Source: Patescibacteria group bacterium (GTDB lineage Bacteria > Patescibacteriota > Patescibacteriia > JAXHNJ01). Taken from it: a DNA stretch of 64,000 nucleotides. Below the pieces are notes generated by a model. The model saw only the letters and a list, made by a program, of their open reading frames with translations. It was not told the origin of the DNA and did not search any database. This document shows, in pieces, positions 2,000 through 64,000 of the stretch (the first letter of the stretch is position 1; each line of letters starts with the position of its first letter). The stretch is taken from assembly GCA_041649715.1 (NCBI GenBank), contig JBAZMP010000003.1:36155-100154 (forward strand), read 5' to 3'. Both the position numbers and the translations under genes were made by a program.

Positions 2000-2097
2000 A
2001 TGTGTATTTGTGTCGTCCTAAAGAGATATTATTTTCCGATTTCTTCTTCCCCTTTTCCAAGACTTCCGGCTCTTTTCCCTTAGTAATGCGTTTTTCT

Positions 2098-2538: not shown

Positions 2539-2554
2539 TTATTGTAAAACGTTG

Positions 2555-2959
2555 TTATTTAAGCGTCACTTTGGCGCCGGCGGTTTCCAGCTTCTTTTTT
2601 ATTTCCGCCGCTTCTTCTTTGGAGGCGCCTTCCTTGACCACCTGTGGGGCCTTATCCACCAGATCCTTGGCTTCCTTCAAGCCTTTCTGGGTGATCTCGC
2701 GGATCACTTTGATGACCGCGATCTTATTGGCGCCACCTTCCGTGATTTCCACGTTAAAGGTGGACTGCTCTTCCGCGGCCGGTCCAGCCGCCGCGCCTGC
2801 GGAGGCCATCATCATCGGGGCCTGGGCCGAAACGCCGAATTTCTCTTCCAGCACTTTCACCAGTTCCGCCAAATCCAGGACCGAGAGTTTTTCAATTTTC
2901 TCGATCATGTCCTTAAATTTTTCCGGAACGGCCACTGTTTTCTTTTCTTCATCTGCCAT
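2555..2959 (-). CDS. rplL: 50S ribosomal protein L7/L12.
   Basis: Characteristic Ala/Glu-rich hinge ([16 protein letters not shown]) and a conserved C-terminal domain ([35 protein letters not shown]). Confidence 0.95.
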
Positions 2960-2986
2960 ATGTTTTTCCTTATTTAATTATATTAT

Positions 2987-3508: not shown

Positions 3509-3700
3509 AAAAAAGAGGTCTTGACACCGCAAGACCTAGACAAGCATGGAAGTTTAACTTCACGCTTCTGCCTCGGTAGGAGATTAAGCCCCATTGGGGC
3601 GCCTACGGTCTGCGGCCTAAATAATTTGTTAACTTATCCACATTATAACAGAGCTAAAAATAATGTCAAATATCCAAAAAAGAAAGGGCGGTAAAAAACC
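3509..3700 (-). promoter_or_regulatory. Putative rplJ (L10) leader region with a terminator/attenuator-like hairpin (aggtcttg-cggtgt-caagacct followed by T6) directly abutting the start codon.
   Basis: An 8-bp stem plus cttttttATG on the minus strand at 3509..3539, with further GC-rich hairpins at 3545..3620. L10 leaders acting by attenuation are established in Firmicutes. No SD is visible. Confidence 0.35.
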
Positions 3701-3727
3701 GCCCCGTAAACGCTATTCCCTGCCCCC

Positions 3728-4105
3728 TTAAGGGTAAAGAATCAGATACCAATCGCTTTGACCTCGACCAGTGTGGCGGAAACCGATGGGAACCAGGGCC
3801 CTCTTAATGAGAGTCCATTGCCAGTCGCTGGCGCCTCCCGGACTGACGGTTATTTCCGCGCCGCCTTTTCGGATCCGCTCATCATTCAGGCTTGGAATCC
3901 CAGGCTTAAAAGAGTAATTACCTTCCCAGGGCCGACAGTTCAAGGAGATATAACCCCCCTCATCCAAATCATGGAGAACCGGACCAACAACCAAAAGAGC
4001 TTGAATTGATACCCTGCCCTCAACATCCTTATCAATACTTGTCGGCAAACGGGACAATATACCGCGAAGCTGGCTTATCCTCTGACTATTCCGGCTTGGT
4101 TTCAT
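3728..4105 (-). CDS. Hypothetical protein (125 aa), GC-rich.
   Basis: ATG with AGGAGG at 8-nt spacing. It sits where rplA/rplK would normally be. No domain recognised. Confidence 0.4.
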   Translation of the reverse strand: MKPSRNSQRISQLRGILSRLPTSIDKDVEGRVSIQALLVVGPVLHDLDEGGYISLNCRPWEGNYSFKPGIPSLNDERIRKGGAEITVSPGGASDWQWTLIKRALVPIGFRHTGRGQSDWYLILYP

Positions 4106-4193
4106 GAAAACTACCTCCTGACAAAGCTTCCCCGTTATTCAAGCCAACTGTATATCAGTATTTTAGACTTACAACGAAAATAGTCAAATATTA

Positions 4194-4880
4194 TCAATCT
4201 ATAATCGTCCCTTTAAAGCCTTTTCCCTGCAAATAAGCCTTCAAATTAGGCAAATTCGTTCCTTTAATTATGATGACCCGCAAACCAATTTTCTTTGCCA
4301 GTTTCGAGGCCTCCGGATCAAAAGGCGAAGACATCCTCGGCTGCCATTTGGTGCCGATGATTTTCAGATAATCGGCCCACCTTACCTGCTTTAAGGGTTT
4401 GGCGTCCTTGAATTTCCGGGGATCTTTATCATAAACATAATCCTTGTCAAAAAGGTTGATCGCTTCATTCGCCCCAAATTGCTTGGCCAATAGCACCATG
4501 TCCTTGTCTGAAGAACAGCCGGGCTGCCAACCCGAACCAATGATGATCTTTTTATTTGTTTTTACCTTTTCGCAAGGGTTGTAAACGATTTTATCGTACG
4601 CGTAATCGGCAAACATCACTCTCACTAATTCCGCATTCATCTTGGTCGCCGCAATACCAAGCCAGTCGAGATCAATCGGTTTCACTTTACCAAAGGCTTG
4701 GGCTGCCTTATTGTATTCCCTGTTCACCCGGCCGCCGCCGCAAACGATGACAAACCGATGGCCCATTTTGACGAAAGAAAGAATCAGATCGCGGAATTTC
4801 TTTAAGAATTTGACGTTAATCTCGTCGGGTATGATAATCGAACCGCCCAAAGAAATAATAAATGTCTTCATTTTTTTCAA
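4194..4880 (-). CDS. pyrH: UMP kinase (amino-acid kinase family, short archaeal-like form).
   Basis: ISLGGSII, VCGGG and GSGWQPGCSSD motifs of the PyrH/amino-acid kinase fold. Length is 228 aa. Confidence 0.75.
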   Translation of the reverse strand: MKKMKTFIISLGGSIIIPDEINVKFLKKFRDLILSFVKMGHRFVIVCGGGRVNREYNKAAQAFGKVKPIDLDWLGIAATKMNAELVRVMFADYAYDKIVYNPCEKVKTNKKIIIGSGWQPGCSSDKDMVLLAKQFGANEAINLFDKDYVYDKDPRKFKDAKPLKQVRWADYLKIIGTKWQPRMSSPFDPEASKLAKKIGLRVIIIKGTNLPNLKAYLQGKGFKGTIID

Positions 4881-4940
4881 AGTTTAATATATTTAAGGGA
4901 TAATGTATAATTATAGGACAAATCTTAAAATCAATCAATC

Positions 4941-6413
4941 ATGAATATCCTTCCCTTAAGTTTCATTTTCCTCGGCGCCGGCCTTTTTTCCGTCGTCTAT
5001 TACAAATTAACGCCGGATAAAGAGATGCTCAAGGCCCGCCTGCCCAATAAGGTGGGGGCGGCCGGGATCATCCTTTGGCTGATAATCTGCGTGGCTTTTT
5101 ATTTTATCTTTAAGAACAGCCGCGGCTTTGAACGCACGGTCAGTATTTTTACCCTGCTCTTTGCCCTTCTTGTTTTTGAAACCTTTTTCCTGCTTTTGAT
5201 CCGCTGGTTTAAATCAAACCTTCTGGCCGTCTTAATCGCCCTGCTGGCCAGCGGGGTCTTATTCGCTTTTCATAATTATTATCCGACTTTCACTCTGCGC
5301 AACACCCTGATAATCCTGGGCACCCTGGGGGCCACTACCCTCTTGATAAAACTGAATTATCTGAAAACTTGGATTGTTTTCGGACTGGCTTTTCTCTGGA
5401 CCGGCTATGATATCTATACCACCCGCTATTTTTTGCCGAATGTCCTGGTCCCGGTCACCGAACCGCCAAAGACTTTCTTTTTCCCCTCCGTGATCACCGG
5501 CTCCGTCTCTTTGGGCAGCGGGGATTTCATTTTTCTGGTCCTTTTCACCCTTATTATTCTGAAAAAATTCGGAAAATTAGCCGCCTTAATCCTCGTTGCC
5601 GCCCAAACCGCGGGCTTGCTTTTTACCGGGTTATTTCTGGAAAGTGACTCCATCATCCCCTTCCTGGCGGTCATGACACCGATATTCCTGATTATATATT
5701 TAATTTTATTTATTAATTTAAAACCGAAAGAAAAAAATATGCTTAAGATCGGACACCGAGGGGCTTGCGGCTATGAACCTGAAAATACTCTTGCTTCTTT
5801 TGAGAAAGCCCTGGCTTTAAAAGTAGATATGGTAGAGTTTGATGTTTATGTCTGTAAAACCGGCGAAATTGTTATCATTCATGATGATACTTTAGAACGC
5901 ACAACCAATGGCCAGGGGTTGGTTTGGGAAAAAACATTTGGAGAATTGAGGGCCCTCGATGCCGGCCAAGGCGAAAAAATTCCCACTTTGCCGGAAATTC
6001 TGGATTTAATTGATAAAAAAGTAGCGGTAAATATTGAGTTAAAGGGGCCGGGTACCGCCAAACCGGTTGCCGACGTAATAAGAGAATATCTGACTAAGGG
6101 ATGGAAAAATGATCATTTTATCGTTTCCTCCTTTAATCTTGGAGAGTTAGATTCATTTTATCAACTTTTTCCGGATATAAAAATCGCCGCTTTGATAGAA
6201 AATGAACCAAAAGACTTAAAAAATTTTATCAAAGACAAAGGCTATTCCGCGATCAACCCCGGCTTAAAATTTGTCACCCGAGAATTTGTTAATCAGGTTC
6301 ACAAACTCGGTTTAAAAGTCTACGTCTGGACGGTTAATGAAAAAGAAGACCTTGAAAGAATGAAAAAATGGGGCGTTGACGGCGTCTTCTCTAATTATCC
6401 GGATAGAGTGTGA
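4941..6413 (+). CDS. Membrane protein with a C-terminal glycerophosphodiester phosphodiesterase (GDPD) domain.
   Basis: About 250 aa with multiple TM helices, then HRGACGYEPENTLASFEKA...EFDVYVCKTGEIVIIHDDTLERTTNG, the GDPD catalytic signature. Confidence 0.8.
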   Translation: MNILPLSFIFLGAGLFSVVYYKLTPDKEMLKARLPNKVGAAGIILWLIICVAFYFIFKNSRGFERTVSIFTLLFALLVFETFFLLLIRWFKSNLLAVLIALLASGVLFAFHNYYPTFTLRNTLIILGTLGATTLLIKLNYLKTWIVFGLAFLWTGYDIYTTRYFLPNVLVPVTEPPKTFFFPSVITGSVSLGSGDFIFLVLFTLIILKKFGKLAALILVAAQTAGLLFTGLFLESDSIIPFLAVMTPIFLIIYLILFINLKPKEKNMLKIGHRGACGYEPENTLASFEKALALKVDMVEFDVYVCKTGEIVIIHDDTLERTTNGQGLVWEKTFGELRALDAGQGEKIPTLPEILDLIDKKVAVNIELKGPGTAKPVADVIREYLTKGWKNDHFIVSSFNLGELDSFYQLFPDIKIAALIENEPKDLKNFIKDKGYSAINPGLKFVTREFVNQVHKLGLKVYVWTVNEKEDLERMKKWGVDGVFSNYPDRV

Positions 6414-33779: not shown

Positions 33780-34436
33780 TCAGGATTGTATAAAATCATT
33801 ATCTTTATATTCTAAATCGTTAAAATAATCACACGAATATCCCAGTTTTTTTTCTTCACCGCCCCAGCTATTACATGTGGCTATTTTATTACCCTCTCTA
33901 TCATAGTATATCTCACCCATGTCTGTAACCCAAGCACTTACCTGATATATTCTGCCGTATTTTTTAGTATTCCAAGAAACAATTTCATAATGGTTATCTT
34001 CCCATAAATTCCATGAATTAGAACTATATTGACTTTTTATATTATTTACAACAGTCATGTTAACCTTATCATCATCTGTGTTTGACGAGGGTTTTTGAGT
34101 GAAAAGATATAGTACGACACAAATTATGCCATAAACTAACCCGATAAATAATAACGTCAGCAGTAGTGATTTAACGAGATTTTTTTTATTAATAAACACA
34201 AAATAACAAGAAATGATGTATATTGCTATTAGGTATATTAGATTAAAAATAATGAAGATTGGCCAAGAATCTGGGACAGCACCCATAAACATATATTTAT
34301 AAGTTGACAGACGAGATAAAAAACTCGCTTCAATTAAATCAGTAAAAAACCAGACGGCAACAACTGTAATTATTATTAGTCCAAAAAATATTAATAGTTT
34401 CTTTTTTACTGGTTTTAAAAATTTTAAGATGAACAT
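33780..34436 (-). CDS. Hypothetical membrane protein, strongly AT-rich, flanked by inverted repeats.
   Basis: 3 N-terminal TM helices plus a Trp/Tyr/Cys-containing C-terminal domain. Coding GC is about 30% versus about 47% in neighbours. Confidence 0.5.
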   Translation of the reverse strand: MFILKFLKPVKKKLLIFFGLIIITVVAVWFFTDLIEASFLSRLSTYKYMFMGAVPDSWPIFIIFNLIYLIAIYIISCYFVFINKKNLVKSLLLTLLFIGLVYGIICVVLYLFTQKPSSNTDDDKVNMTVVNNIKSQYSSNSWNLWEDNHYEIVSWNTKKYGRIYQVSAWVTDMGEIYYDREGNKIATCNSWGGEEKKLGYSCDYFNDLEYKDNDFIQS

Positions 34437-40487: not shown

Positions 40488-42509
40488 CTATCTGTCATAA
40501 TTCGCCAAAAAGTTTTCTCTATCGGTAATTTTGTTTATCTCACTAATCAACTGCTCGGTCAAAATCTGCGGTTCCAGTTTTCGCCATCTATTTTCGATAG
40601 CTGTTTTACGGAAAGTAATATTAATCAATGGCGTAATATCCATCAACTTTAATATCCATTTCAACCTTGTCGGTGTTTCATCGATATATTTAATATATTG
40701 GTCTCTTACAAGTTTTGAATAATATTCAACGAATTGTATAGAATACTCGATTGATCCACTTTCCCAAGTAATTCGGCTGATTTCATGTTTATCTTGAAGG
40801 GTCAATTTATTCTTGCCAATAAATTTGATGATTGTTTGTTTATCCTTTAGATTTACCCCGGGATTAAAAATCGTATATATGATCGGCAAAGTCAATTTTC
40901 CTTCCGCGATATCATTATGTGATGTGCTTTTCATTCCCTTGCTCAAGTCAGACATTTGTTCTGGAAAAATTAAATCGCCCAAATCGTTCCTGATCATCTG
41001 TACCAAACCGAATATTTTTGAGATATAAATGCAGGCGCTTTCTGTTTCTTTTTTATTATAAAACTGCGCCCCGACATTGGTTGATTTAACAGCCATGCGG
41101 CCTATCTCTTCATAAAAAGCCCCGCAAATGCCATAAATCCGGTTAAAGTATTTCTTTAAAGCCGATTCTAAATTATTTTCCTGGATAAACCCTAATAAAT
41201 CCTTATTATTTGTAAATGTTAAATCAATATCAATCGGCTGTCCTAAATACATTATATATTGGACATCATTCAGGGCTGAAAGTAACTGTTTAGATGGTTC
41301 TTCCTTATCTCTGGTTAATTCGTATAACAAAACTAATGAGAGACAATGACCTATTGCACCCAGCAAAAAAGCGTTTTTTCTGCTTCCAAATTTTTTATGG
41401 AGTGTTTTTTCTCCCTGGCGACTGTCAGAATCGTCAAAAACATCATCAATGGCGTAAGTATTCAGCCAATTATATATTTCGAGAATGGCGCCCATTTGAT
41501 AAACAAAACTTTCATGAAAATATTTTTGTGAGGCAATAATATGATGACTAACCAAATCATAAAGCTCAAAAAAGATCGTCGGCCGAGTTTTCTTCTTTCC
41601 TTGTTTTCTTCCTTGAATTTCTTGGGCCGGAATATTAAACCAGTAGGCTATCATGCCAGAAATATCCTTAATATTTTTCTTTCCCTCGAAATAACTTAAA
41701 TACTTGCTGATAGAATGATAAAGAAATGGAACCAAGCTATTAAAATCTTCCTCAATTATTTGTTTGACGATTTTCGCGCGTTCATATTCTAAATTACATA
41801 TTTGACGGTAAGTAAATGGAACATCGAATTTTGTTTTACTGTTTTCAAAAACTTTGGTATTCAAGGCATATTTATTATAATCCGCATATTCCCCGCTTTT
41901 CTCCAGAATTTTCGCCACCACTGATATATCCGCATAATGACGAAGCTCCTTATCAACAGAATAATTAATAATCCCCTCCCTGGCGTAAATGGATTTATAA
42001 TATTTATCCAAATACTCAATAATTTTATTCTCAAATTGATCTTTATTTTCACAATAAAGAACAGCCGTGTGCGTGAATTTATCATTGTTTTTGGCAAATT
42101 CCGAGACTTCTTTGCTGGTTGTCAATATGGCGCCGATACTAAAAGTCACCATCCACTGGGCTGAATAGTAATCAAGGTGTTCCAAATTTTCTACTAACAT
42201 TATTGTCGGTTTTTCCTTACCAATCGCATAGCCGCATTCCCATGTACTATCCGTTCCGGCCGCTCCATTATTCTCCGTGTCATACATTTTCATGTAAGCA
42301 AGTATGGCATTACATTTATTTATTTCGCCTAAATCTTTTGTCGCAATTCTAATGGGAATTTTTCTCTGATCGGAGTAGTCTTCATCGATCAAGGCGGGCT
42401 GAAACAAATCTAACTTTTTATTAAAGAATGGCGAATATTCATCTTTAAAATTTTGTCTCCATAACTTTATTCCTGACGCTAAGTATATTTTATATCTTGT
42501 TACTGGCAT
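40488..42509 (-). CDS. Fusion protein: N-terminal nucleoside 2-deoxyribosyltransferase-like (NDT/SLOG-fold) domain plus C-terminal trans-polyprenyl diphosphate synthase-like domain.
   Basis: N-terminus: KIYLASG...CNAILAYM...NGAAGTDSTWECGYAIGKEKPTIML (NDT signature DxGTxxExGyAxaxgKP). C-terminus: GKKKTRPTIF (GKxxRP), first Asp-rich motif AIDDVFDDSDSRQGEKTLHKKFG (cf. IspB LLHDDVVDESDMRRGKATANAAFG), second motif region MIRNDLGDL...HNDIAEGKLTLPIIY (SARM degenerated to NDxxD, then GKxTLP). The gene is markedly AT-rich. Confidence 0.6.
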   Translation of the reverse strand: MPVTRYKIYLASGIKLWRQNFKDEYSPFFNKKLDLFQPALIDEDYSDQRKIPIRIATKDLGEINKCNAILAYMKMYDTENNGAAGTDSTWECGYAIGKEKPTIMLVENLEHLDYYSAQWMVTFSIGAILTTSKEVSEFAKNNDKFTHTAVLYCENKDQFENKIIEYLDKYYKSIYAREGIINYSVDKELRHYADISVVAKILEKSGEYADYNKYALNTKVFENSKTKFDVPFTYRQICNLEYERAKIVKQIIEEDFNSLVPFLYHSISKYLSYFEGKKNIKDISGMIAYWFNIPAQEIQGRKQGKKKTRPTIFFELYDLVSHHIIASQKYFHESFVYQMGAILEIYNWLNTYAIDDVFDDSDSRQGEKTLHKKFGSRKNAFLLGAIGHCLSLVLLYELTRDKEEPSKQLLSALNDVQYIMYLGQPIDIDLTFTNNKDLLGFIQENNLESALKKYFNRIYGICGAFYEEIGRMAVKSTNVGAQFYNKKETESACIYISKIFGLVQMIRNDLGDLIFPEQMSDLSKGMKSTSHNDIAEGKLTLPIIYTIFNPGVNLKDKQTIIKFIGKNKLTLQDKHEISRITWESGSIEYSIQFVEYYSKLVRDQYIKYIDETPTRLKWILKLMDITPLINITFRKTAIENRWRKLEPQILTEQLISEINKITDRENFLANYDR

Positions 42510-52739: not shown

Positions 52740-52973
52740 AAAAAAGAATTTTTTCGTAATATTAATGGATTAGTTCTATTCTAACCGATATTTTTTGTTT
52801 GGTCAAGTAAGCCAAAATTTGACTAAAATAAGACCAGTTGATAGGATATTAATATCAAAAAATTTCTGGCGGGGTATGGCCTCGAAGGCATCGGCGCACG
52901 CTTCGCCCCGCAAAATTTTAACTCCATTAAAATTATACGGGGTAAAGGTGCGTTCAAGAAGAGCGGGTCGCAC

Positions 52974-53046
52974 CGGGGTATGGCCTAATTGGCAAGGCGC
53001 ACGCTTCGGGTGCGTGAGATTCTGGGTTCAACTCCCAGTACCCCGA
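52974..53046 (+). tRNA. tRNA-Pro (anticodon CGG).
   Basis: Manual cloverleaf: 7-bp acceptor with C1-G72, D-arm with G18G19, anticodon stem cacgc/gcgtg with loop ttCGGgt (U33, G37), 5-nt variable loop, T-arm ctggg-TTCAACT-cccag, A73. CCA is not encoded. Confidence 0.85.
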
Positions 53047-53293
53047 TGCGACCCGCTGGTTCACCCTGTCATACTATGGGGTGCCACGGGTTTATCCCGT
53101 GGCAACTCCCCCGGTACCCAATTATATTATTTCCTAAAAACAGCAAATCCTTCAAAAGGCTGTTTTTTATTTTAGAAATTCTAACAATTAAACCAAGCCA
53201 AGTATAATGTTTTTTGAAGCAACAAATCAGTAAGTCTGTATAAAAAATGCTTTTACAAAACGTTAAATTAGATATCATAAAAATAGACCGACA

Positions 53294-53322
53294 CTTGCAA
53301 AAATCGTGAAAATATGGTAAAA
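53294..53322 (+). promoter_or_regulatory. Sigma70-like promoter (TTGCAA, 17 nt, extended -10 TGgTAAAAT) for the 1243-aa gene.
   Basis: Good hexamers at 17-nt spacing, about 75 nt upstream of the ATG at 53400. Confidence 0.4.
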
Positions 53323-53399
53323 TATATTAATTCAACCTTAATTTCTTATCATACATATCTTAAAGCAAACTCTTATAAGTATTATATATTTTTACGGCG

Positions 53400-56300
53400 A
53401 TGAATGAAACTGGGGCAAAAGAAAACCAACCAGACGTTTTAGACGTTTTAGAAACAAGCGCTGAAGAACCAAAAAAGAAAGAAACGCAAGAGGATATCTC
53501 ACGAGATTCTCTCATTCCCCGGCTGTCTAACCAAAAAGCAGCCATGGATTTTAATATTGAATCAAGGGCGAGGTTAATCCAAAGTATTTTTCACTCTCTA
53601 GAAAATGGAGTTGAACCCGGTGTAACATTGCCAGAAAAGGAAATGCTAAAACCCGAGGCAGTACTAAGAAAAATTGAAAAAAACATATCTCGACTATCTA
53701 ATCCCACTATTGATGATATCTCGAGTGTGCTTACCTCCTCGGGCATGGAAATGGCTGGTATCAAGTCAGGTCTTCTTATCGATAGAACTAAAATCGAATC
53801 TCTTGCTAATGATAAAAAAAATCTAGGTGATAAAAATGATGAATTTTCCGCCAGATTGGCCGCCGAAGAGAAAAGAAATTTTTTTGTTAAAATATTCCGG
53901 GGGAAAATGAGACGGGAGTTGGCAGACCAGATTAAAGAAATATCCGTTCAAAGGACGAAAACTGAATTCCTGATTGAAGATAGCCAGTCAGCGGCTAATG
54001 ACACCGAAAGTGTAATAGAACGTATATCAAAGCTAAGACAAGACCTTTGCCTTAAAGCCTCTCAACAACTATTCCAGGAAGTAATTGAACAGTATAACCA
54101 GTTCCATGAAAATTTAACGACTCCCGAGGTAAAACAAGCGTTAAATAGCGATCTAATCGCCAAAGAAGTGGAACCAGCCCTTTGGATATTGATCTCCAAC
54201 GAAGATCTTACCGTAGAAGAGGCAAACGAATATATTGAACTCTTAAAAGCTCAGTTGGCCGAAGACAACCAAAGGCATTGGGATGAACCGCCCGAAAAAG
54301 AAGAAGTCAGGCGCCAGCGAAGAAAAAGAATAGAAGAACTTAACCAACAATCAGATTATCAGCTGAGAGATATCGGCAATCGAGTTGACCGCCAAGAATC
54401 TTTAGCGGCGGATAATCACTATAACGAGATATTTAATTTTCTGCTCCGGGAAGAAACAAGAAGCAAGGTAGAACAGCTCTATAATTCACTGAAAGATTCT
54501 TTAAGCCCTGAATTACAAAACGAATTTGAAAGAATATTTACTGAAAAAAACATGATTTTAGATAATAATAATTTACCAATTAAAGAATTCGACAGACTTA
54601 CGGGGCTGGAACGATGGCAGATCGTTAAAAATTTTACCAAAAATTCAAATATCATATCAAGAGAAACTTTTTCGCGTACGGAAAAAATCATCATCAACAG
54701 GCTATTCAAGGAAGAGCTTTTTCCCGGCGGCCGAGAATCATGGTCGGGAACCTACGCCGCGATAAAACTCGGGGCGCTTGAAAATCCCGAGGCATTACCG
54801 CTTATGCTAAGACACATTGAATCTTCAGGCGTCGGACATACTAATAATGCGGTCGCATATGAAATGGAAAAACTGATGCAAAAAAGCAATCCGACTGAAC
54901 TTCAACAAGTCTTGGAAGCTTTACCTAAAAATAAAAGAGCTTTACTCCAAACCATGGTTGACGAAAATTCATACATGAGCCGTTTCGGCCGTTGCAACTC
55001 TCGCTATATTACCTGCGATCTTTTGCAAAAAGGCGACATAACGCTTAAACAAGAACAATATGCGAAATTATTAGAAGAGACCGGACTGCCTGAAGAAGAA
55101 TTAGGGGAATTTTATCTTTTATTCGGAGACAGGGAAAAGATATTGGAACAAATCAAAAAAGTGTCTGAACTGGCGGGTGAAGATAAAAAACAAGCAATCA
55201 ATAATTATTTTGAAGTGCTAACTTCGTATATTGAGCCCGAATCCCCGGAATCTCTAAAAATCATTGATGCCTTGTCAAACGAATTGGAGGTTCCCAAAAC
55301 AGATCTTCTTGTTCGTTGCGTGGAAAAATTTGAGAAACCTCGCCGAAACCATATACTAAGAAAAGTGGTATCACCCGATGATAAGGATTATGCGAGCTTC
55401 CCTCTCGCTTTTTCCAAACTATATTTTGGCTTAGAAAAAGACTCTCTTGAAAAATTAGCTAAAGTTTATCAAACAAAAAGTTTACAAACCAGCAGCCTCG
55501 AAAGAGAATTTTTTCTTGAAGGGCTTTTATTACTCAAGGGGAAGGAAAACGGCAAAATCGTTCTGGATATTTTATTAGATAGATACAAAGGGGCAAAAGA
55601 TGATCCCAAAAGAATGAGACGCATATTTCAAACTCTTTCGACGCTTGATGGTTTTGGCGAATACGGCCTGGCGGTACCAAATCCAGACAAAGAAATGAAG
55701 ATAAACCAAGAAATCTTTAATCTGCAAAATCAATATTCACAAACACAAGATAAAGCGGGGCGAAAAGTAATAAAAAATCGGATTGAAGGGTTAAATAGCG
55801 ACCGGCAAAATCTGACGGGATTAAAAGGTATTGAAGACGCCATGATAGAAAAAGTGGTCTCGGTCGCGTGCCGACGGCTGGAATTACCGCCAGAATTTCA
55901 AAAAAAGATAGAGAATAATTTAGACGAGTTGCTGAAAAACGGCGTATTTGAAATAGTCCCAACTTTAGCGGGAAAATATGAAGAAAAGGACGAAAGAGAA
56001 ACTAAAAATCTTCTAAAAATAATAACTTCTCATATTATAGAAGGTGACTTCAAATCATGGCGATATTCACACGAGCGAAGCGAAAAACAATTATCTGGCT
56101 TGACAGAAGAACAAAAAGATTATTGGATAAAAGCATCAGAACCCGTCACTCTTGAAATCGAATCCTCTAGAGACGAGAAAGAAAAACGGGCAGAAGAGTT
56201 GAGGGCAGCCCAAGAAATAATTTTAAATGCCAAAGAGCATATAATAAATTCGCAACCGGACTTTGATTTTTCGAAAGAAAGAGCACGAACACTGACAGAA

Positions 56301-57131
56301 AAAACAAAGGAATTAACGGAAAAAATTAAATTAGCTACTTCTCCAGACGAAAAACAAAAATTGATTGCTGAAAAAAGGAATGCTCAAGCGATAGCGACAT
56401 TAATCAATGGCCTCCTGGAAATTGAAAACGCAACCCCGCAATCTTTCGCCCGCGAAAAAATAGTTACACAAGCTAGAGAATTATCCGAAAAAATGGTCGA
56501 GCTAAATATGCCGCTAGCCAATCTGGATTTGGAACAAATGGAGAAAATATTTACCGTTGGGGATATAAAAAGCGTAAAAGCTTACGAATCGGATGATCCG
56601 CTAACCTTACTAAATATAGGGGTGGAACCGCAAGAAACCTGCCAATCGTGGAGAAACGGAGGATTTAATGAATGTTTACTGGCTTATGTGGCTGATAGTA
56701 ATAAAAAGGTTATTAATGTCGCCGATGAAGAAGGCCGAATTATCGCTCGCAGCGTTATCAAACTTAATGATTACAAAAATGAAAACGACACCGAATCTAA
56801 AACACAGAAAAAAACTATACTTTTGGAAAAACCGTATTCTTTGCGGCCGAATATAGAAGTTTACCGCGCTTTTGCGCGCGTACTATTAGCAAAAGCCCAG
56901 GGTCTTGATTCTTCGATTACTCTAAGTAATGGCTTGGATCAAGACATTATCAAAATTTTTGAAGAAGAGGCGCGCGCTTTCGGATATGAAATAAATGAGG
57001 GTAAATTTGAGATTTATATACCGCCGAGCTTGAACAAATACGAATATAGCGATTCATTAGGCGGTAAAATCGAATGGTTTGACAGATATCAAACAATTAA
57101 TGCAACGACATTTGAAAAAATTAAGTCATAA
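53400..57131 (+). CDS. Large (1243 aa) cytoplasmic hypothetical protein. Lys/Glu-rich, predicted helical/coiled-coil, no recognisable catalytic motif.
   Basis: Uninterrupted 3.7-kb ORF with no signal peptide. AT-rich (about 38% GC). Immediately downstream of tRNA-Pro and followed (4-nt gap) by a Rieske protein gene. Confidence 0.6.
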   Translation: MNETGAKENQPDVLDVLETSAEEPKKKETQEDISRDSLIPRLSNQKAAMDFNIESRARLIQSIFHSLENGVEPGVTLPEKEMLKPEAVLRKIEKNISRLSNPTIDDISSVLTSSGMEMAGIKSGLLIDRTKIESLANDKKNLGDKNDEFSARLAAEEKRNFFVKIFRGKMRRELADQIKEISVQRTKTEFLIEDSQSAANDTESVIERISKLRQDLCLKASQQLFQEVIEQYNQFHENLTTPEVKQALNSDLIAKEVEPALWILISNEDLTVEEANEYIELLKAQLAEDNQRHWDEPPEKEEVRRQRRKRIEELNQQSDYQLRDIGNRVDRQESLAADNHYNEIFNFLLREETRSKVEQLYNSLKDSLSPELQNEFERIFTEKNMILDNNNLPIKEFDRLTGLERWQIVKNFTKNSNIISRETFSRTEKIIINRLFKEELFPGGRESWSGTYAAIKLGALENPEALPLMLRHIESSGVGHTNNAVAYEMEKLMQKSNPTELQQVLEALPKNKRALLQTMVDENSYMSRFGRCNSRYITCDLLQKGDITLKQEQYAKLLEETGLPEEELGEFYLLFGDREKILEQIKKVSELAGEDKKQAINNYFEVLTSYIEPESPESLKIIDALSNELEVPKTDLLVRCVEKFEKPRRNHILRKVVSPDDKDYASFPLAFSKLYFGLEKDSLEKLAKVYQTKSLQTSSLEREFFLEGLLLLKGKENGKIVLDILLDRYKGAKDDPKRMRRIFQTLSTLDGFGEYGLAVPNPDKEMKINQEIFNLQNQYSQTQDKAGRKVIKNRIEGLNSDRQNLTGLKGIEDAMIEKVVSVACRRLELPPEFQKKIENNLDELLKNGVFEIVPTLAGKYEEKDERETKNLLKIITSHIIEGDFKSWRYSHERSEKQLSGLTEEQKDYWIKASEPVTLEIESSRDEKEKRAEELRAAQEIILNAKEHIINSQPDFDFSKERARTLTEKTKELTEKIKLATSPDEKQKLIAEKRNAQAIATLINGLLEIENATPQSFAREKIVTQARELSEKMVELNMPLANLDLEQMEKIFTVGDIKSVKAYESDDPLTLLNIGVEPQETCQSWRNGGFNECLLAYVADSNKKVINVADEEGRIIARSVIKLNDYKNENDTESKTQKKTILLEKPYSLRPNIEVYRAFARVLLAKAQGLDSSITLSNGLDQDIIKIFEEEARAFGYEINEGKFEIYIPPSLNKYEYSDSLGGKIEWFDRYQTINATTFEKIKS

Positions 57132-57134
57132 ATT

Positions 57135-57464
57135 ATGAATTCGTTAACAACCTTATTAAAACAAGGCTTGATGTATCCCTATCGTTTTATCAAAGGCAGA
57201 GGTCAAAAAACTATGATTACTATCGATCAAATCAAACCTAACGAAGGGGCTATCGTCGAAGAACAAGGAAAGAAAATTGCCGTGTACAAAGATAACAGTG
57301 GCAACATCATAAAAATGTCGCCTGTCTGCACCCACCTAAGTTGTATTATCGGCTGGAATGAAACGGAAAAAACCTGGGACTGTCCTTGCCACGGTTCTCG
57401 CTTCGACGCTTCCGGCCATGTCATTAACGGCCCGGCCAAAAAGAATCTTGAGCCGAAAAACTGA
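57135..57464 (+). CDS. Rieske [2Fe-2S] domain protein (bc-complex-type cluster-binding boxes).
   Basis: CTHLSC (box I) and CPCHGS (box II) separated by 16 aa; GPA motif downstream. 109 aa with no TM anchor. Confidence 0.75.
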   Translation: MNSLTTLLKQGLMYPYRFIKGRGQKTMITIDQIKPNEGAIVEEQGKKIAVYKDNSGNIIKMSPVCTHLSCIIGWNETEKTWDCPCHGSRFDASGHVINGPAKKNLEPKN

Positions 57465-57486
57465 TTAATTTTAAAGTTTAAAAAAA

Positions 57487-57522
57487 GAAAGCCCCGATTT
57501 TCCGAGGCTTTCTTTTTTATAT
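57487..57522. terminator. Bidirectional intrinsic terminator (gaaagcc-ccgattttccg-aggctttc with A-run 5' and T-run 3') between the convergent Rieske and copA genes.
   Basis: 7-bp stem flanked by aaaaaaa and tttttt. Confidence 0.5.
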
Positions 57523-59739
57523 ATGCTTTTGTCCTCGGTATCCCTTCATTAGAAGCGCGTTCAAAACCACACTGACCGAAGAAAAAGCCATGGCGGCCGC
57601 GGCAAACGCCGGGTTTAAAAGCCAGCCGGTCAAAGGATATAAAACTCCCGCGGCAATGGGAATGGTAAAGATATTATAAATAAAAGCCCAAAAAAGATTC
57701 TGTTTGATTTTTTTCAGGGTATAATTGCTTAAATCCATCGCCTTTATCACCTGCCGCAGATCATCTTTGATTAAAATAATGTCTCCGGTTTCCATGGCCA
57801 CATCCGTGCCGGAACCTAAAGCCAGCCCCAAATCCGCCTGCGCCAAAGCTGGCGCGTCATTAATACCGTCGCCCACCATAGCCACTATTTTTCCGCCAGC
57901 TTGGAGTTTTTTGATTTCGGCGGATTTATCTTGGGGCAGCACTTCGGCTAATACCTTGTCAATTCCCACTTTTTCGGCGATCGCTCGGCCGACCCGTTTA
58001 TTGTCGCCGGTAATGATCATGACTTCCTTATTCATTTTATGCAGAAGATCGACCGCATCTTTTGAATTTTCTTTAAGAGTATCTGCGACACCAATTAACC
58101 CGATTATTTCCGAGTCGTGTGCGAGTATCATGGCCGTCTGCCCTTGATTTTCTAAAGCCGCCAGCTTATCCTCAACTAAGGAAAAATCAATCTCATTATC
58201 AAGCATTAATTTTCTGGTTCCTAATATAATATTATGATTGTTTAATTCGCCTGTAACTCCTTGGCCGGGTACCGCCTTAAAATTTTTAACCGCTGACATT
58301 TCAATTTTTTCTTCTTTCGCTTTTTTAACGATGGCTTGGGCCAAAGGATGTTCGGAATTATTCTCAATGGATGCGGCTATTTGCAGGATACTTTTAACCT
58401 TTAACTGTGAACTTGGAACCCGAAAAATTTCAGTGACAATCGGCTCTCCACGAGTTAAGGTGCCAGTTTTATCAAAAACAACCGTGTTAATTTTGTGGGC
58501 CGTTTCGAGAGCTTTGGCGTTTTTTATCAAAATCCCTTGTTGCGCGGCCAAACCCGTCCCCATCATTACCGCCACGGGGGTGGCCAGTCCCAAGGCGCAG
58601 GGGCAAGCGATGATTAAAACAGAAACCAGAACGGATAGGGCAAAAACTAAAGATTGACCGGCGATCAGCCAGACAATAAACGACAAAAGACTAAGGCCGA
58701 TTACGGCCGGCACAAAATAATAGGCGACTTTGTCGGCCAGGGCTTGAATCGGGGCCTTGGAGCCCATCGCCTCTTCCACTAAACGGATGATCTGTGAAAG
58801 CATAGTCGCTTCCCCGACCGCCAGGGCTTTTATTTTTAACACGCCGTTTTGATTGACTGTGGCTCCGATTACTTTGTCGCCGGCTCTTTTTTCTTTCGGC
58901 AGACTTTCGCCGGTAATCGCTTTTTCATCCACACTGGAATCACCTTCAACCACGACGCCGTCCACCGGGATTTTTTCGCCGGGTCTGACTAAAACAATAT
59001 CACCGATTTTAACTTCGTTTATTTTAATTCTTACTTCTTGGCCGTTTTTGATGATAACCGCTTCCTTTGCCTGTAAACCGGCCAGTTTTTTAACGGCCTG
59101 CCCCGTCCGGCCTTTGGTCAGGCCTTCTAGATATTTGCCTAACGAAATAAAAATCAAAATAAAAATTGCACTTTCATAATATATGGTAGGCATGCCAATG
59201 GATCCCTTGAGCAAGAAAATGACGGAAACAATTACGCTATAAAAATAAGCCACGACGGTGCCCATGAAAATCAAAGAATCCATGTTCGGCGATAATCTTA
59301 CTAATCCCTTGAGACCGGTGCGTAAAAGATTAAAATTTACGCTCATCACCATAGTCGCCAGAATAAATTCCGCATAAGGGCGGTAAGTCTCCCCTAAAAC
59401 CGGCAAACCGAGCATTTCTCCCATCACGAGATAAATAACCGGCAAGCCGAAAATCAGCGACAGGAAGAAACTTTTTCTTAATTTTTTCACGTCGCCGACT
59501 TCATGATGATGCTCGTGGCTATCCCCTTCCTCAACCACTCCATACCCCAGCTTCTTGATTTCCGACTTTATCTTATCCAGAGAGATCAAGTCCATATCAA
59601 ACTCTACTTGCGCTTTTTCCGAGGCGAAATTGATGTTAAAAAGTTTGATTCCCGGCATTTGGCGCAAAGCGTGTTCGATATTAACCGCGCAGGTCACGCA
59701 GCTCATGCCGGTTAATTTTATGCTGATTTTATGTATCAT
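57517..59739 (-). CDS. copA: Copper-translocating P1B-type ATPase.
   Basis: N-terminal HMA domain (GMSCVTCA), CPC motif ([13 protein letters not shown]), DKTGTLT phosphorylation site, [10 protein letters not shown]. The track ORF extends to 59841; ATG 59739 is preferred as it avoids overlap. Confidence 0.9.
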
Positions 59740-59743
59740 AAAT

Positions 59744-61120
59744 TTAGTTTTTCGCCACCACCTCAATGGTGCCGACCACCATCCCCATCCAGCAGCTGAA
59801 TTTGTATTTGCCGGCAGGCGGCGGCTGAAATTCCTTGACACTCGTTTTCCCGACCGTCAAATCGATCTGCCCGAGAAAAAGGCTTTTTCCAATCACCTTG
59901 TTGGTACAGCCCGAAGTGCCGGTATCCTGGATCTCCCAACGGACCGGAATTCCTTCTTTAACTTTAAAATAATTCGGGAAATAACCGGCGGCCGAAGCCT
60001 CCATTTTTATGACCTGTTTGCCGGAGATTACAGGCGGGAAACCATCCTCGCTGGCCTGCGCCTGATTATTGGTTTTAAAGTTTAAATTGTTCAAAGAAGG
60101 CCAGCCCAAAACGTTAAATTGAGCGTTGAGGTTAAATAAGGCGAAAAACAAGACTAATACCCCGGCGGTTTTCAAAAAAAGATTGGCAAACTTCTTATGA
60201 CTGAAGAATTTCACGCCAGCCAGACCGATCAACAATAAAGGAATGGTCGTGCCTAAAGCGAAAAAAAACATAATTAAAGCGCCCTGCCAGAAACTGCCGG
60301 AAAGTAGTGCCAAGCCTTGACTAGTGATGGTAAAACCGCAAGGCAAGAAAAAAGTGGCTGCTCCGGCCAGCAAGGGAAAATACCGACCTTTGAATTTTCT
60401 TTCATCGCTTAGACGGCTAGTCAAACCCTTGGGCAAAGAAAATTGAAAAGCTCTTAGAGCTTTTACGCCCAGCATCTGCAGGCCCAGGAGAAACATCAAC
60501 ACGGAAACCGCCATCACCAAAATAGAGGTGAAAGTCAGGGATATTTTAAGCTGACCGCCAAGCACGCCTAAAACACCGCCCAAAACCGCATAAGAAATCA
60601 GCCGGCCGGCGTTAAACATCAAATGCGGCTGTAATTTTTTAAAAGTGGAATCCGTCTGGCCGTAAAGATCCAGCCATTGCTTGGACAAAGACAATATAAT
60701 CCCACCGACTAAAGCGGCGCAGGAGGTCAGACCGGCAAGCCCCCCGAAAGCGAAAAAAGTGGGCAGCGAGGACTGCGCCTGGACATTAACTAAGGAGCTG
60801 AAGCCCAGACGGTTCAGCAGGAAGAAAAACAAGATTATTCCCAAAGAAATTAGAGAAATTTTCAAAATACTTGTCTTAGATTTTTCCCCCATATTTTCTG
60901 CTTCTAACTCAAAAAAAGTGTAGCCGTCTTTTTGAAAAAGTTTATTTAAATCCGCTAACGAGGGAATTTCCCCTTCTATCGCTGCCTGCTCTTTTTTCAA
61001 GGAAACATTAACTTTCTTCACGCCTTTGATTTCAGAGATTTTTCTTTCCACCAATAAAACGCAGGATGAGCAGTGCATCCCTTTGATTCCGTAGATCTTT
61101 TTCCGAGTATTAATTTCCAT
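59744..61120 (-). CDS. HMA-domain membrane protein with a DsbD/CcdA-like TM core and a C-terminal cupredoxin-like domain.
   Basis: N-terminal [11 protein letters not shown] motif, about 8 TM helices, and a C-terminal beta-rich domain with Cys/His/Met (GCTNKV...SCWMGMVVG). Confidence 0.55.
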
Positions 61121-63185: not shown

Positions 63186-64000
63186 TTATTCGATTTTTAC
63201 TGAATTATATTTCTTGGCTACCGCTACCTTTCTAAAGCCGTAAGCGCCGAAAGCCGCCACCGTGATCACTAAGACATACATCAGGTAATCCGTGACATTA
63301 CTGCCCGCTTGGGGCAGGGTTTCGTCACCGGCCACTTCGCCTTCATCCTCGGCGCCTAAAACCGCCCCTTTCTTGGTAATCGCAACGTCGGCCGTGTCCT
63401 TGACCGGCTTAAGGTCGTCGGCGGAAACCTGGGCGGTATTAGTGTAGGTGCCAGGCGTAACCGTCGTGCCCGCGGTCACCGTGTAAATGAAATTCATCTC
63501 TTCTCCGACCTTCAGATCATTGAAGAACCAGGAGCCGTCTGAACCGTCGTCATAAGTGAAACCGGCCGGCATGTTGTCCGCTAACCGGACATTATAAGCG
63601 GTGGCGGTCCCTGTATTCTCTATGGTCACGATATAATTGATCTTGCTGCCGGGATAATAAGTGCCGGCTTCCACGGATTTTTCAATCGTGAGTTTGGGAG
63701 AGGTGATCTCCGGCGTTACCGGCGGAGGCAGAGGCTCGGGTTCCGGCTCCACAATGGTGCAGGTGGCCGAGCAGGTCTGGTCGCCGGTGGCACCATCGGT
63801 ATTATCACATTCCTCTGCGCCGTTCTTGATGTTATCGCCGCAGTACGGGACCGTTTCCAAAAGACATTGATCAGTGCAAGTTTGGTGCTCTCCGACGCCA
63901 TCCGTGTTATCGCACTCTTCCGCGCCGTTCTTGATGTTATCGCCGCAAGATGGCCCGGTTACCTCGGCGTAATCGCAAGCCGTGGTGCAATATTGGCAGG
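63186..64000 (-). CDS. Surface protein, 5'-partial: Myxococcus-type Cys-rich repeats (CGDNIKNGAEECDNTDG), a DUF11 domain and a C-terminal LPQAG sortase sorting signal.
   Basis: Frame open to the window end (…CQYCTTACDYAEVTGPSCGDNIKNGAEECDNTDGVGEHQTCTDQCLLETVPYCGDNIKNGAEECDNTDGATGDQTC…). DUF11-like ITKKGAVLGAED...; ETLPQAG + TM + RK tail. Confidence 0.6.
   Translation of the reverse strand, partial: CQYCTTACDYAEVTGPSCGDNIKNGAEECDNTDGVGEHQTCTDQCLLETVPYCGDNIKNGAEECDNTDGATGDQTCSATCTIVEPEPEPLPPPVTPEITSPKLTIEKSVEAGTYYPGSKINYIVTIENTGTATAYNVRLADNMPAGFTYDDGSDGSWFFNDLKVGEEMNFIYTVTAGTTVTPGTYTNTAQVSADDLKPVKDTADVAITKKGAVLGAEDEGEVAGDETLPQAGSNVTDYLMYVLVITVAAFGAYGFRKVAVAKKYNSVKIE

Follow-up and report, generated by a model that had tools for sequence, protein, structure and literature searches.

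The closest described systems to the locus reported here are of several kinds. In the NatA and NatB N-terminal acetyltransferases, a large helical-repeat auxiliary subunit surrounds a GNAT catalytic subunit. Small Rieske proteins of bc/b6f type are represented by 5cxm, 8hn2 (b6f-type, 110 aa), 9rk4 (110 aa, "similar to Rieske protein II of bc1 complex") and sulredoxin (NF041174). Genomic islands are found at tRNA genes, and transfer between Patescibacteria is common (PMC12455944). In the window, which is the whole stretch of 64,000 nt that was analysed, a gene for a protein of 1243 residues lies behind a tRNA-Pro gene and directly before a Rieske gene. This large protein is probably, at roughly 55%, a mobile accessory enzyme of three parts, in which a helical scaffold carries a divergent GNAT-fold head.

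The large gene and the tRNA-Pro site

52870 to 52915, plus strand: partial copy (47-nt) of the 5' half of tRNA-Pro, found by repeat search
52962 to 53057, plus strand: 19-nt inverted repeat bracketing tRNA-Pro(CGG), lengthening its acceptor stem by about 11 bp (fold z-score -5.0)
52974 to 53046, plus strand: tRNA-Pro(CGG), found by ARAGORN; Rfam RF00005, 63 bits
53295 to 53323, plus strand: promoter-like site predicted from sequence, TTGCAA and TAAAAT separated by 17 nt, with a TG extension, 76 nt upstream of the large open reading frame
53400 to 57131, plus strand: large open reading frame, 1243 aa

The GC content of the large gene is 0.384, close to the 38% given for this 3.7-kb frame in the original prediction, against 0.433 for the window. 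Its GC3 is 0.342, two standard deviations lower than among the window's genes (0.500±0.081), and codon positions 1 and 2 have normal GC. Among homologues, the GC content of the gene (0.33-0.43) does not track that of the flanks (0.28-0.49). The gene had been credited with a strong promoter of its own; the motif is present as described, with nine of 12 consensus matches and the TG extension, but a consensus scan finds 20 such sites within 5 kb, where 11.2±3.5 are expected, so the site is not exceptional.

The tRNA had been described as bearing recombination scars, and these are real. They consist of the 47-nt copy of the 5' half, in which 52870-52882 and 52893-52905 are exact 13-nt repeats of the tRNA inside a GCGGGG...CCCCGC hairpin, and of the 11-bp extension of the acceptor stem; the nearest relative, L022, has neither. 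This relative retains the order MgsA-UppS-tRNA-Pro, with a tRNA that is 97% identical, and its homology ends exactly at the 3' end of the tRNA, where a truncated large serine recombinase stands instead; as L022 is a 6.6-kb contig, the absence of the large gene concerns this site and not the whole genome. At four of the 16 distinct loci, each from an independent genome, the large gene is preceded on its own strand by a tRNA-Pro with the anticodon CGG, TGG or GGG (binomial tail ~1e-7); in one of the four, L012, a Bro-N gene lies between the two. Distant homologues of the C-terminal domain are found on five Firmicutes megaplasmids, beside integrases, methylases, nucleases and toxin-antitoxin genes. 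The suggestion of an acquired island after the tRNA is partly supported for the large gene, by its GC3, the break in L022 and the four tRNA-Pro loci. Against it, neither an integrase nor att-type direct repeats occur in the 64,000-nt window, and GC3 is host-like in the genes downstream (Rieske, CopA and HMA). The large gene appears to be horizontally mobile and to occupy here a variable region beginning where tRNA-Pro(CGG) ends.

A modular family with a GNAT-like predicted head

The large protein was first taken for an orphan, which is wrong. It has 15 full-length homologues with 48-56% identity, and a profile search of 1.84 billion representatives retrieves 540 clusters at E<=1e-3 and 79 at E<=1e-30. 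It is a member of a large, unnamed, modular superfamily of big helical proteins found in CPR bacteria, DPANN archaea and Firmicutes megaplasmids, the close homologues coming from Parcubacteria, Doudnabacteria, Peribacteria and Saccharibacteria genomes. Domain mapping and HMM searches separate N and C modules in the family, and the parts of the large protein are the following.

53400 to 54596, plus strand: residues 1-399, acidic N-terminus and charged region (alignment, HMM, composition)
54597 to 56546, plus strand: residues 400-1049, predicted all-alpha helical-repeat scaffold (AF2 model m42619e43d74a)
55827 to 57128, plus strand: C-terminal module, residues ~810-1243 (profile search and domain mapping)
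56547 to 57128, plus strand: predicted GNAT-fold-like alpha/beta domain, residues 1050-1243 (AF2 models, Foldseek, conservation)
56619 to 56708, plus strand: signature block of invariant residues, G-x2-P-x3-CQSW...N-x-CL...D-x-NKK
56820 to 56837, plus strand: signature block of invariant residues, LLE-x2-Y
57027 to 57065, plus strand: signature block of invariant residues, S-x-N-x2-EYSD-x-LGG

The HMM of residues 1-399 matches all 16 full-length sequences and 23 more family proteins, including P0199, P0204, P0210 and P0295, and this region also occurs in family proteins with different C-terminal halves. The description of the protein as K/E-rich, helical and free of transmembrane segments agrees with the data: K and E make up 21.5% of the residues, the scaffold model (pLDDT 72.5) has 77% helix over residues 400-1050, and a transmembrane-like stretch is absent from both this protein and the Rieske protein. 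The scaffold contains a conserved NPEALPLMLRHIE segment and a conserved F884/W887/R888/Q897/W909 segment; it has no match in PDB and BFVD fold searches, and Pfam detects neither TPR nor any other repeat signature in the helical part. The C-terminal module is an evolutionary unit common to DPANN archaeal proteins of ~780-830 aa and CPR proteins of ~1000-1060 aa, from sources named Candidatus Nanoarchaeia, Woesearchaeota and Daviesbacteria. P0251 (1729 aa) and P0295 (1875 aa) have the scaffold module (residues 400-~610) in common with the large protein, and P0295 also its N-terminal region, but they end in DUF294/GlnE/NTP_transf_2 domains, so that a polymerase-beta-type nucleotidyltransferase occupies the C-terminal half where the large protein has the GNAT-like module. 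These nucleotidyltransferase heads speak for an enzymatic head in the large protein as well, and suggest that one type of targeting scaffold is combined with exchangeable heads that modify the target. In P0266, a canonical Pfam GNAT domain is appended after the module.

Two independent AF2 models of the head, of moderate confidence and based on shallow alignments (9-14 sequences), agree on the topology β1-α1-α2-β2-β3-β4-α3-β5-α4-β6-β7. The domain-only model has pLDDT 71.5 and pTM 0.70, and pLDDT falls below 50 at residues 1078-1087 and 1211-1224, the two loops with the strongest conservation. In three Foldseek searches, two against PDB and one against BFVD, the matches fell mainly on GNAT / acyl-CoA N-acyltransferase folds, with TM-scores of 0.35-0.55 and high rmsd. 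Almost every top PDB match of the domain model is a GNAT (SpeG at 2.5e-4, probability 1.0); for a larger model the top matches are NatD, AAC(6') and TacT2, with low-probability alignments to the whole ICL2 chain in between. In BFVD, the named high-probability matches are mostly GNAT / acyl-CoA N-acyltransferases, and the best match of all is an uncharacterized Marseillevirus protein. Sequence-level searches of Pfam, NCBIfam and PDB give no link of residues 1050-1243 to GNATs, and hhalign of the domain against the window's own GNAT is null. The GNAT / acyl-CoA N-acyltransferase topology is assigned to residues 1050-1243 entirely from AlphaFold models of moderate confidence; of the remote-homology comparisons proposed originally, Foldseek gives GNAT-like matches for this region and leaves the helical part unmatched. 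The modelled head could be a non-catalytic ligand-binding module, as is the GNAT-like domain of ICL2, itself one of the matches.

Conservation in the family is concentrated in the head. Sets of 30, 68 and 125 diverse members show about 15 polar residues (Cys, Glu, Tyr, Asp, Arg, Lys and Asn) that are fully or almost invariant in CPR and DPANN proteins, and most of these residues recur in the Firmicutes proteins. The statement that the protein lacks a recognisable catalytic motif is therefore right at the sequence level, but its C-terminal ~190 residues model as a GNAT-like domain carrying this residue set. C1081 and C1092 are its only conserved cysteines, and it shows neither a conserved Cys/His cluster nor any known redox-cofactor motif. 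The Q/RxxGxG/A motif, which binds the CoA pyrophosphate, is absent from the β4-α3 junction in the family alignment, so the donor may not bind as acetyl-CoA does in canonical GNATs.

The accessory enzyme would be a cytoplasmic, multi-domain protein with a charged region (1-399), a helical scaffold (~400-1050) and an alpha/beta head (~1050-1243). In the most probable mechanism, the scaffold would bind a macromolecular partner or target, and the head would then move an acyl-type group to the bound target, with a putative active site built by C1081, Q1082, N1090, C1092, R1117, E1143, Y1146, K1165 and Y1216-S1217-D1218, which the models place in the α1-α2 region, at the end of strand β4 and in the β6-β7 loop.

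The Rieske gene and alternative explanations

57135 to 57464, plus strand: stand-alone soluble Rieske [2Fe-2S] protein, 109 aa (PF00355 at 1.4e-14)
57327 to 57344, plus strand: Rieske box I, CTHLSC, read directly from the sequence
57381 to 57398, plus strand: Rieske box II, CPCHGS, read directly from the sequence
57481 to 57518, no strand assigned: hairpin with flanking A-run and T-run between the convergent Rieske and CopA genes (fold -18.3 kcal/mol, z-score -5.7), resembling a bidirectional terminator

The boxes are of bc1/b6f type, as was recognised at the outset; in NCBIfam and PDB the protein matches b6f/bc1 Rieske subunits best, with b6f PetC at the top, and the four cluster ligands and both disulfide cysteines are present. 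The start of the 109-aa protein is correct, because stand-alone homologues share its N-terminal LLKQGxxYP extension. Among the ten most hydrophobic multi-pass membrane frames of the window there is no cytochrome b or respiratory subunit, in line with the original statement that respiratory complex genes are missing from it. The gap between the two genes is 3 nt (TAA-ATT-ATG) and not 4 nt, and the translational coupling deduced from it is an inference: same-strand gaps of 1-3 nt are common and an SD-like motif occurs in only 10 of the 37 window genes, so the spacing says little. A tblastn search with the Rieske protein finds no Rieske gene in the 19 loci (16 distinct) with homologues of the large gene, at least seven of which include 0.6-10 kb downstream of it; downstream of the homologues lie genes for RNase H, IF3-L35-L20, SIR2, RNase HII, an ECF sigma factor and a YfhO-like protein. 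Around the three closest stand-alone Rieske homologues that are on long contigs, the genes are unrelated and the large gene is missing. The adjacency, whose distribution had been named as a check, is therefore not conserved, and with the unlike GC3 (0.482 for the Rieske gene, 0.342 for the large gene) a functional pair is not supported. The Rieske protein appears to be an independently distributed small soluble ferredoxin and a chance neighbour 3 nt downstream, although the two genes may be co-transcribed in this genome.

A redox pair, co-transcribed and translationally coupled, in which the Rieske protein gives or takes electrons, would fit the shared strand, the 3-nt gap with no terminator in it, the strong hairpin after the Rieske gene and the intact ligands and disulfide cysteines. 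It is highly improbable and largely refuted, because neither gene accompanies the other at the 19 loci or near the three Rieske homologues; the GC3 values differ, such gaps are usual in this compact genome, and conserved Cys/His clusters and known redox-cofactor motifs are missing from the large protein. Even slimmer are the chances of a functional tRNA-Pro adjacency, in which the head would be an aminoacyl-tRNA-dependent transferase (Fem, L/F-transferase or ATE1 type) using Pro-tRNA(Pro). Several GNAT-fold enzymes take aminoacyl-tRNA donors, the predicted fold lacks the acyl-CoA motif, and tRNA-Pro precedes the gene in four independent genomes with three anticodons; but 12 of 16 loci have no upstream tRNA-Pro, L022 keeps the tRNA with a recombinase remnant in place of the gene, the Bro-N gene of L012 is of mobile-element type, and in L004 a terminator-like hairpin and T-run separates the tRNA from the gene.

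Two other explanations concern the head itself. The large protein could be an anti-phage or inter-microbial conflict protein, a doubtful reading, whose scaffold senses an invader or host signal and whose head is a toxin, for example one that acylates aminoacyl-tRNA like the TacT/AtaT GNAT toxins, with nucleotidyltransferase heads in sister proteins. Swappable heads on a common scaffold, the GNAT toxins 7byy and TacT2 among the fold matches, and a patchy, mobile distribution with tandem paralogues in L018 point in this direction. Several loci adjoin genes of defence or mobile-element types (SIR2, Fic, SMC_N/AAA_15 ATPase, XRE HTH, NYN, Bro-N), and the five megaplasmids carry a conserved two-gene cassette near methylases, a DUF262 protein, a GIY-YIG nuclease, a restriction endonuclease, a MazF toxin and integrases. 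Against it, PADLOC and IMG/VR return nothing, many CPR neighbours are housekeeping genes (ribosomal proteins, IF3, SAM synthetase), and the CPR genes have no conserved adjacent antitoxin or immunity partner. Rather less likely again is a non-enzymatic structural or scaffolding protein with a degenerate ligand- or protein-binding head, as would suit a protein that is >80% helical repeat, the missing CoA-binding motif and the best matches, among them the GNAT-like domain of M. tuberculosis ICL2, which is regulatory and non-catalytic. The gathering of ~15 polar, nearly invariant residues in one domain is instead typical of an active site, and the sister heads have a true enzyme fold, that of nucleotidyltransferases.

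Comparison with known systems

Like the small Rieske proteins named above, the present one has a Rieske fold, CxHxxC and CxCHGS boxes, extra disulfide cysteines, ~110 residues and no membrane anchor. Unlike bc-complex subunits, it lacks both a transmembrane helix and a Tat signal, and the window has no cytochrome b. It corresponds to the C-terminal domain in the fusions of FAD-dependent oxidoreductases (PF01266) with Rieske domains, but stands alone and is not joined to an FAD domain.

The site differs from tRNA-associated islands in that the window has no integrase or flanking direct repeats, a single gene is deviant, and the tRNA is duplicated in its 5' half, with the copy upstream, while the usual pattern is the 3' half downstream. 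It resembles them in the break at the tRNA 3' end, the recombinase remnant there in L022, the deviant codon composition and the repeated position of the family by tRNA-Pro.

In the GNAT superfamily (PF00583 and its clan), the best structural matches of the head are SpeG (3tth, 7kwh), NatD/Naa40 (4u9w), AAC(6')-Ih (4e8o), the TacT2 toxin (7ak7) and the ICL2 GNAT-like domain (6ee1). The head differs from GNATs by undetectable sequence similarity, the missing Q/RxxGxG/A, the invariant Cys-Gln-(Ser)-Trp and EYSD-x-LGG loops, which have no GNAT counterpart, and its fusion behind ~1000 residues of helical scaffold. It is like them in the predicted order of strands and helices, in Foldseek probabilities of 0.9-1.0 and in an invariant Glu at the end of β4, the place of the general base in many GNATs. 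Unlike NatA and NatB, the large protein is one polypeptide, whose helical part matches no fold and no Pfam repeat, TPR included. By analogy only, it resembles them in combining a long helical scaffold with a small head of predicted GNAT fold, and the N-terminal acetyltransferases NatD and Naa20 rank among the best fold matches of that head.

Family and modules of the large protein

The 1243-residue protein of this locus, whose helical residues ~400-1050 are here called the scaffold and residues ~1050-1243 the head, belongs to an uncharacterized protein family that is large, mobile and modular and whose head has a divergent GNAT fold. Most of the original observation holds, but its headline does not. 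The features of the locus are listed below.

Features of the locus
52974-53046, + strand, tRNA-Pro(CGG), from tRNA gene prediction and Rfam
53295-53323, + strand, promoter-like consensus site TTGCAA-17-TG-TAAAAT
53400-57131, + strand, ORF of 1243 aa, the large gene
57135-57464, + strand, ORF of 109 aa, the Rieske gene
57481-57518, hairpin flanked by an A-run and a T-run between the convergent Rieske and CopA genes (fold z-score -5.7)

[quoted passage not shown] It is not the orphan it had been taken for. A word-indexed search returned 16 proteins at E = 0: its own entry and 15 full-length homologues, which share 48-56% identity with it and lack Pfam domains. Assemblies with close homologues include Parcubacteria, Doudnabacteria, Peribacteria and Saccharibacteria. 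When a profile of residues 400-1243 was run exhaustively with HMMER against representatives of clusters at 50% identity, 540 of them passed E ≤ 1e-3, of which 154 also passed 1e-10 and 79 passed 1e-30.

Mapping of these hits reveals separable parts. Proteins of ~780-830 and of ~1000-1060 aa also contain the C-terminal module (residues ~810-1243); by source names, the ~790-aa class belongs to DPANN archaea (HLC56322.1 of Candidatus Nanoarchaeia, MBW3015780.1 of Woesearchaeota) and the ~1040-aa class to Daviesbacteria. The N-terminal ~600 residues are found in proteins of 1340-1875 aa with different C-termini. Distant copies of the head were detected by tblastn at 24-31% identity and E-values down to 8e-9. 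On five Firmicutes megaplasmids they make up the C-terminal end of hypothetical proteins of 825-837 aa, and others are present in two faecal "Bacteriophage sp." contigs. The scaffold module (residues 400-~610) is present in the family members P0251 and P0295, the latter of which also has the N-terminal region. Both carry a GlnE/DUF294-type nucleotidyltransferase end (residues 1361-1489 and 1578-1635, respectively) in place of the GNAT-like module, while P0266, a protein of 2037 aa, has an extra canonical Pfam GNAT domain after the module. Since sister proteins have nucleotidyltransferase heads or an additional GNAT domain, an enzymatic, target-modifying head joined to a helical targeting scaffold is favoured.

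In one homologue locus (L018), a 606-aa ORF at 69-1889, which is a distant relative of the C-terminal module (blastp 5e-29 to the family member P0287), lies directly upstream of the large-gene homologue at 1928-5698, so that the two are tandem paralogues. A 1211-aa neighbour in another locus, L001, is unrelated to the family.

Predicted fold and invariant site of the head

Conservation is highest at residues ~1030-1243, which reach 80% column identity among close homologues. In 30-125 diverse members, the invariant or near-invariant residues are D1065, G1074, P1077, C1081, Q1082, N1090, C1092, L1093, D1099, K1102, R1117, E1143, Y1146, K1165, A1166, S1210, Y1216, S1217, D1218, G1221, and G1222. 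That the invariant polar residues cluster in the head speaks against its being a purely structural domain.

The AF2 model of the head is of moderate confidence (pLDDT 71.5, pTM 0.70), and its two most conserved loops are poorly modelled. An independent AF2 model of residues 400-1243 has a pLDDT of 72.5. DSSP assigns to both models the succession of strands and helices that defines the GNAT topology, b1-a1-a2-b2-b3-b4-a3-b5-a4-b6-b7. The head resembles solved GNATs in Foldseek: the PDB matches of the head model are almost all GNATs, with SpeG at 2.5e-4 and probability 1.0, and include a GNAT toxin and the GNAT-like domain of ICL2. The larger model aligns with NatD, AAC(6’) and TacT2 on the head, and these matches are interleaved with low-probability alignments of ICL2 over the whole chain. 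The named high-probability matches in BFVD are mostly viral acetyltransferases, the top match being an uncharacterized Marseillevirus protein. The remainder of the modelled region consists of helical repeats that have no fold match.

Profile methods do not recover this likeness. Neither the large protein nor 30 diverse head members match any Pfam or NCBIfam model, a Pfam search of 14 members was likewise null, a head profile has no match among PDB sequences, and hhalign of the head to the canonical GNAT encoded in the same window gives a probability of 0.2. In GNAT enzymes, motif A (Q/R-x-x-G-x-G/A) at the b4-a3 junction binds the pyrophosphate of CoA. This motif is missing at the corresponding position in the alignment of diverse heads, where the large protein has E-K-P-Y-S-L-R-P-N-I-E-V, a family-variable segment without conserved glycines in which only E1143 and Y1146 are invariant. 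The original statement that the protein has no recognisable catalytic motif therefore holds for sequence profiles, but not for the predicted fold, which is GNAT-like and has an invariant putative active site.

No description of the family was found in the literature. What is new is the family itself, for which there is no curated model; it combines a GNAT-like fold bearing an unusual invariant site with interchangeable heads and adjacency to tRNA-Pro genes. The remaining interest lies in a sizeable superfamily that has no coverage in Pfam, NCBIfam or PDB and is spread across CPR bacteria, DPANN archaea and mobile replicons of Firmicutes. A catalytic head would widen the range of GNAT-fold chemistry and would also offer a way into one of the many large proteins of episymbiotic microbes that have no known function.

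Recurrence beside tRNA-Pro genes and genomic context

In each of four independent genomes, a tRNA-Pro gene lies upstream of a homologue of the large gene and is read from the same strand; three anticodons are represented. This makes 4 of 16 distinct loci, with a binomial tail of ~1e-7 at an assumed chance of 0.003 per locus.

tRNA-Pro genes upstream of the large gene and its homologues
Window, 52974-53400, anticodon CGG, 354 nt from tRNA to gene
L004 (5839-6001) and L014 (4630-4792), anticodon TGG, 92 nt from tRNA to gene
L011, 5857-6001, anticodon GGG, 70 nt from tRNA to gene
L012, 3800-4777, anticodon CGG, a Bro-N (mobile-element) gene between tRNA and homologue

This recurrence could reflect either a functional link of the large gene to tRNA-Pro or repeated insertion at tRNA-Pro genes. 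Repeated insertion fits better, because the four tRNA-Pro are different genes, no conserved sequence is found downstream of them, and synteny is broken at the tRNA in L022, the nearest relative found; the functional link has a low probability. In L022 the order MgsA-UppS-tRNA-Pro(CGG) is kept (MgsA 69%, UppS 76% and tRNA-Pro 97% identical to the window) and homology stops at the 3’ end of the tRNA. A truncated large serine recombinase (PF07508 and PF13408) follows there, and then a DUF11 protein. The recombinase (2010-3236), which has Recombinase and Zn_ribbon_recom domains and lacks the catalytic N-terminal domain, abuts and overlaps the tRNA gene and marks the tRNA-Pro site as an integration hot spot. 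The closest match of the DUF11 protein in the window is the gene at 63186-63860 (48% identity), and the entire block of 53.05-63.1 kb is tentatively regarded as variable.

The recombination scars described at the tRNA were verified. A 47-nt copy of the 5’ half of tRNA-Pro lies at 52870-52915, 104 nt upstream of the tRNA, whose acceptor stem is lengthened by 11 bp through flanking inverted repeats (52962-53057), and both are absent from the syntenic L022. The tRNA is the sole Rfam match between UppS and the large gene.

The proposal of an acquired island after the tRNA was borne out in part, and for the large gene. In its favour are the synteny break and the GC3 of the large gene, which is 0.342 against 0.500 ± 0.081 for 35 genes of the window, 2 sd under the mean; amino-acid composition does not account for the low value, since the first two codon positions have a normal GC (0.405). 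Its homologues have a GC of 0.33-0.43 irrespective of the GC of their flanks (0.28-0.49). On the other side, no integrase or recombinase was found among the window ORFs examined, the serine-recombinase remnant being confined to L022, and around the large gene there is neither a second copy of the tRNA 3’ end nor att-type direct repeats above chance; moreover, the GC3 of the other genes is typical of the window (Rieske 0.482, CopA 0.485, HMA-DsbD 0.534). The site described as a strong promoter of the large gene is present, but similar ones are frequent in the AT-rich sequence here (20 found against 11.2 ± 3.5 expected).

Elsewhere in the window, where mean GC3 is 0.50, low values also occur at 33780-34436 (0.251) and at 40488-42509 (0.353), the latter encoding a fusion of a nucleoside 2-deoxyribosyltransferase-like and a polyprenyl synthetase domain. 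Many contigs with homologues of the large gene are short (3.7-7.5 kb) and end within a few hundred bases of it (those of P0003, P0005, P0007, P0009, P0013, and P0016, and L003-L007, L009, L011, and L013-L015). Assembly breaks on both sides of a gene are typical of repeated or strain-variable regions.

The neighbours of the homologues suggest that the family may have a role in conflict. Among them are SIR2, Fic, an SMC_N/AAA_15 ATPase, XRE regulators, NYN, and Bro-N, and the tandem paralogues of L018 point the same way. The five Firmicutes megaplasmids (Alkaliphilus, two of Paenibacillus, Virgibacillus and Rossellomorea) share a conserved two-gene cassette, in which a helical hypothetical protein of 640-700 aa precedes the protein with the head-homologous C-terminus, among methylases, a DUF262 protein, a GIY-YIG nuclease, a restriction endonuclease, MazF, toxin-antitoxin genes, and integrases.

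Two-gene cassettes on Firmicutes megaplasmids
L102, 1977-6609
L103, 2285-6735
L104, 2411-6837
L105, 2167-6609
L106, 2198-6648

The upstream partners (641-698 aa) match neither the N-terminal nor the scaffold HMMs and have no PDB relatives. Against a conflict role, PADLOC has no match for the large protein or the Rieske protein, IMG/VR yielded no relative, and numerous CPR homologues are surrounded by housekeeping genes. If the family is a conflict system, it would be a new one. A wider proposal, which we consider unlikely as a whole, is that the family represents an undescribed mobile class of scaffolds with interchangeable GNAT-like or GlnE-like heads, common to CPR, DPANN and Firmicutes megaplasmids, which would prefer tRNA-Pro sites, act in conflict or host interaction and possibly modify aminoacyl-tRNA or translation factors by a Cys-dependent GNAT-fold chemistry without the CoA motif.

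The Rieske protein

The Rieske gene is an unrelated neighbour of the large gene. The conserved pair that had been proposed is not supported by distribution: tblastn with the Rieske protein finds no Rieske gene in 19 large-gene loci, no large gene lies near the three closest Rieske homologues on long contigs, which have unrelated neighbours, and the genes that flank large-gene homologues differ in every context. The spacing also does not demonstrate translational coupling. The stop codon TAA of the large gene (57129-57131) is followed by ATT and then by the ATG of the Rieske gene, which is a gap of 3 nt and not of 4. Gaps of 1-3 nt are frequent between same-strand genes of the window, and a Shine-Dalgarno-like motif precedes just 10 of 37 genes, so tight spacing and a missing ribosome-binding site say little here; as most genes lack the motif, its absence ahead of the Rieske gene was not accepted as evidence of coupling. 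Since the two genes are neighbours with no relation to each other, the supposed riddle of a giant protein working with a Rieske module goes away.

A copper-handling block (57517-61120, - strand) adjoins the Rieske gene. It is encoded on the opposite strand and comprises a CopA-type P1B ATPase, which has an HMA domain, and a second protein in which HMA, DsbD_2 membrane and cupredoxin domains are fused. As listed, CopA begins at a GTG that makes it overlap the upstream gene by 98 nt, and its real start therefore probably lies further downstream.

The Rieske protein matches PF00355 at 1.4e-14, and its best matches, which are b6f/bc1 Rieske subunits, are PetC in NCBIfam (5.6e-18) and 2zt9_D in PDB (1.9e-14). 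CTHLSC (box I) and CPCHGS (box II) are of the bc1/b6f type, as had been noted, and are invariant among homologues, including the disulfide cysteines. The scores are far under the curated cut-offs (64.9 bits against 250 for NF045928 and 57.9 against 97.4 for TIGR01416). Stand-alone homologues of 103-112 aa keep the N-terminal extension LLKQGxxYPxxFxxGR, which indicates that the 109-aa start is correct, and the extension aligns with the linker before the Rieske domain in fusions with FAD-dependent oxidoreductases (PF01266). Neither a membrane anchor nor a Tat signal was found in the protein, and no cytochrome b is found among the window's ten most hydrophobic multi-pass membrane ORFs, in agreement, as far as this subunit is concerned, with the reported lack of respiratory genes in the window. 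No description of Rieske proteins in CPR was found in the literature. Judged from its sequence, the protein is a small soluble bc-type Rieske ferredoxin and not a subunit of a bc complex, because of the scores far below the cut-offs, the stand-alone homologues of 103-112 aa and the N-terminus resembling a fusion linker. It is of the same kind as the solved soluble Rieske proteins 5cxm, 8hn2, and 9rk4, which have ~110 aa.
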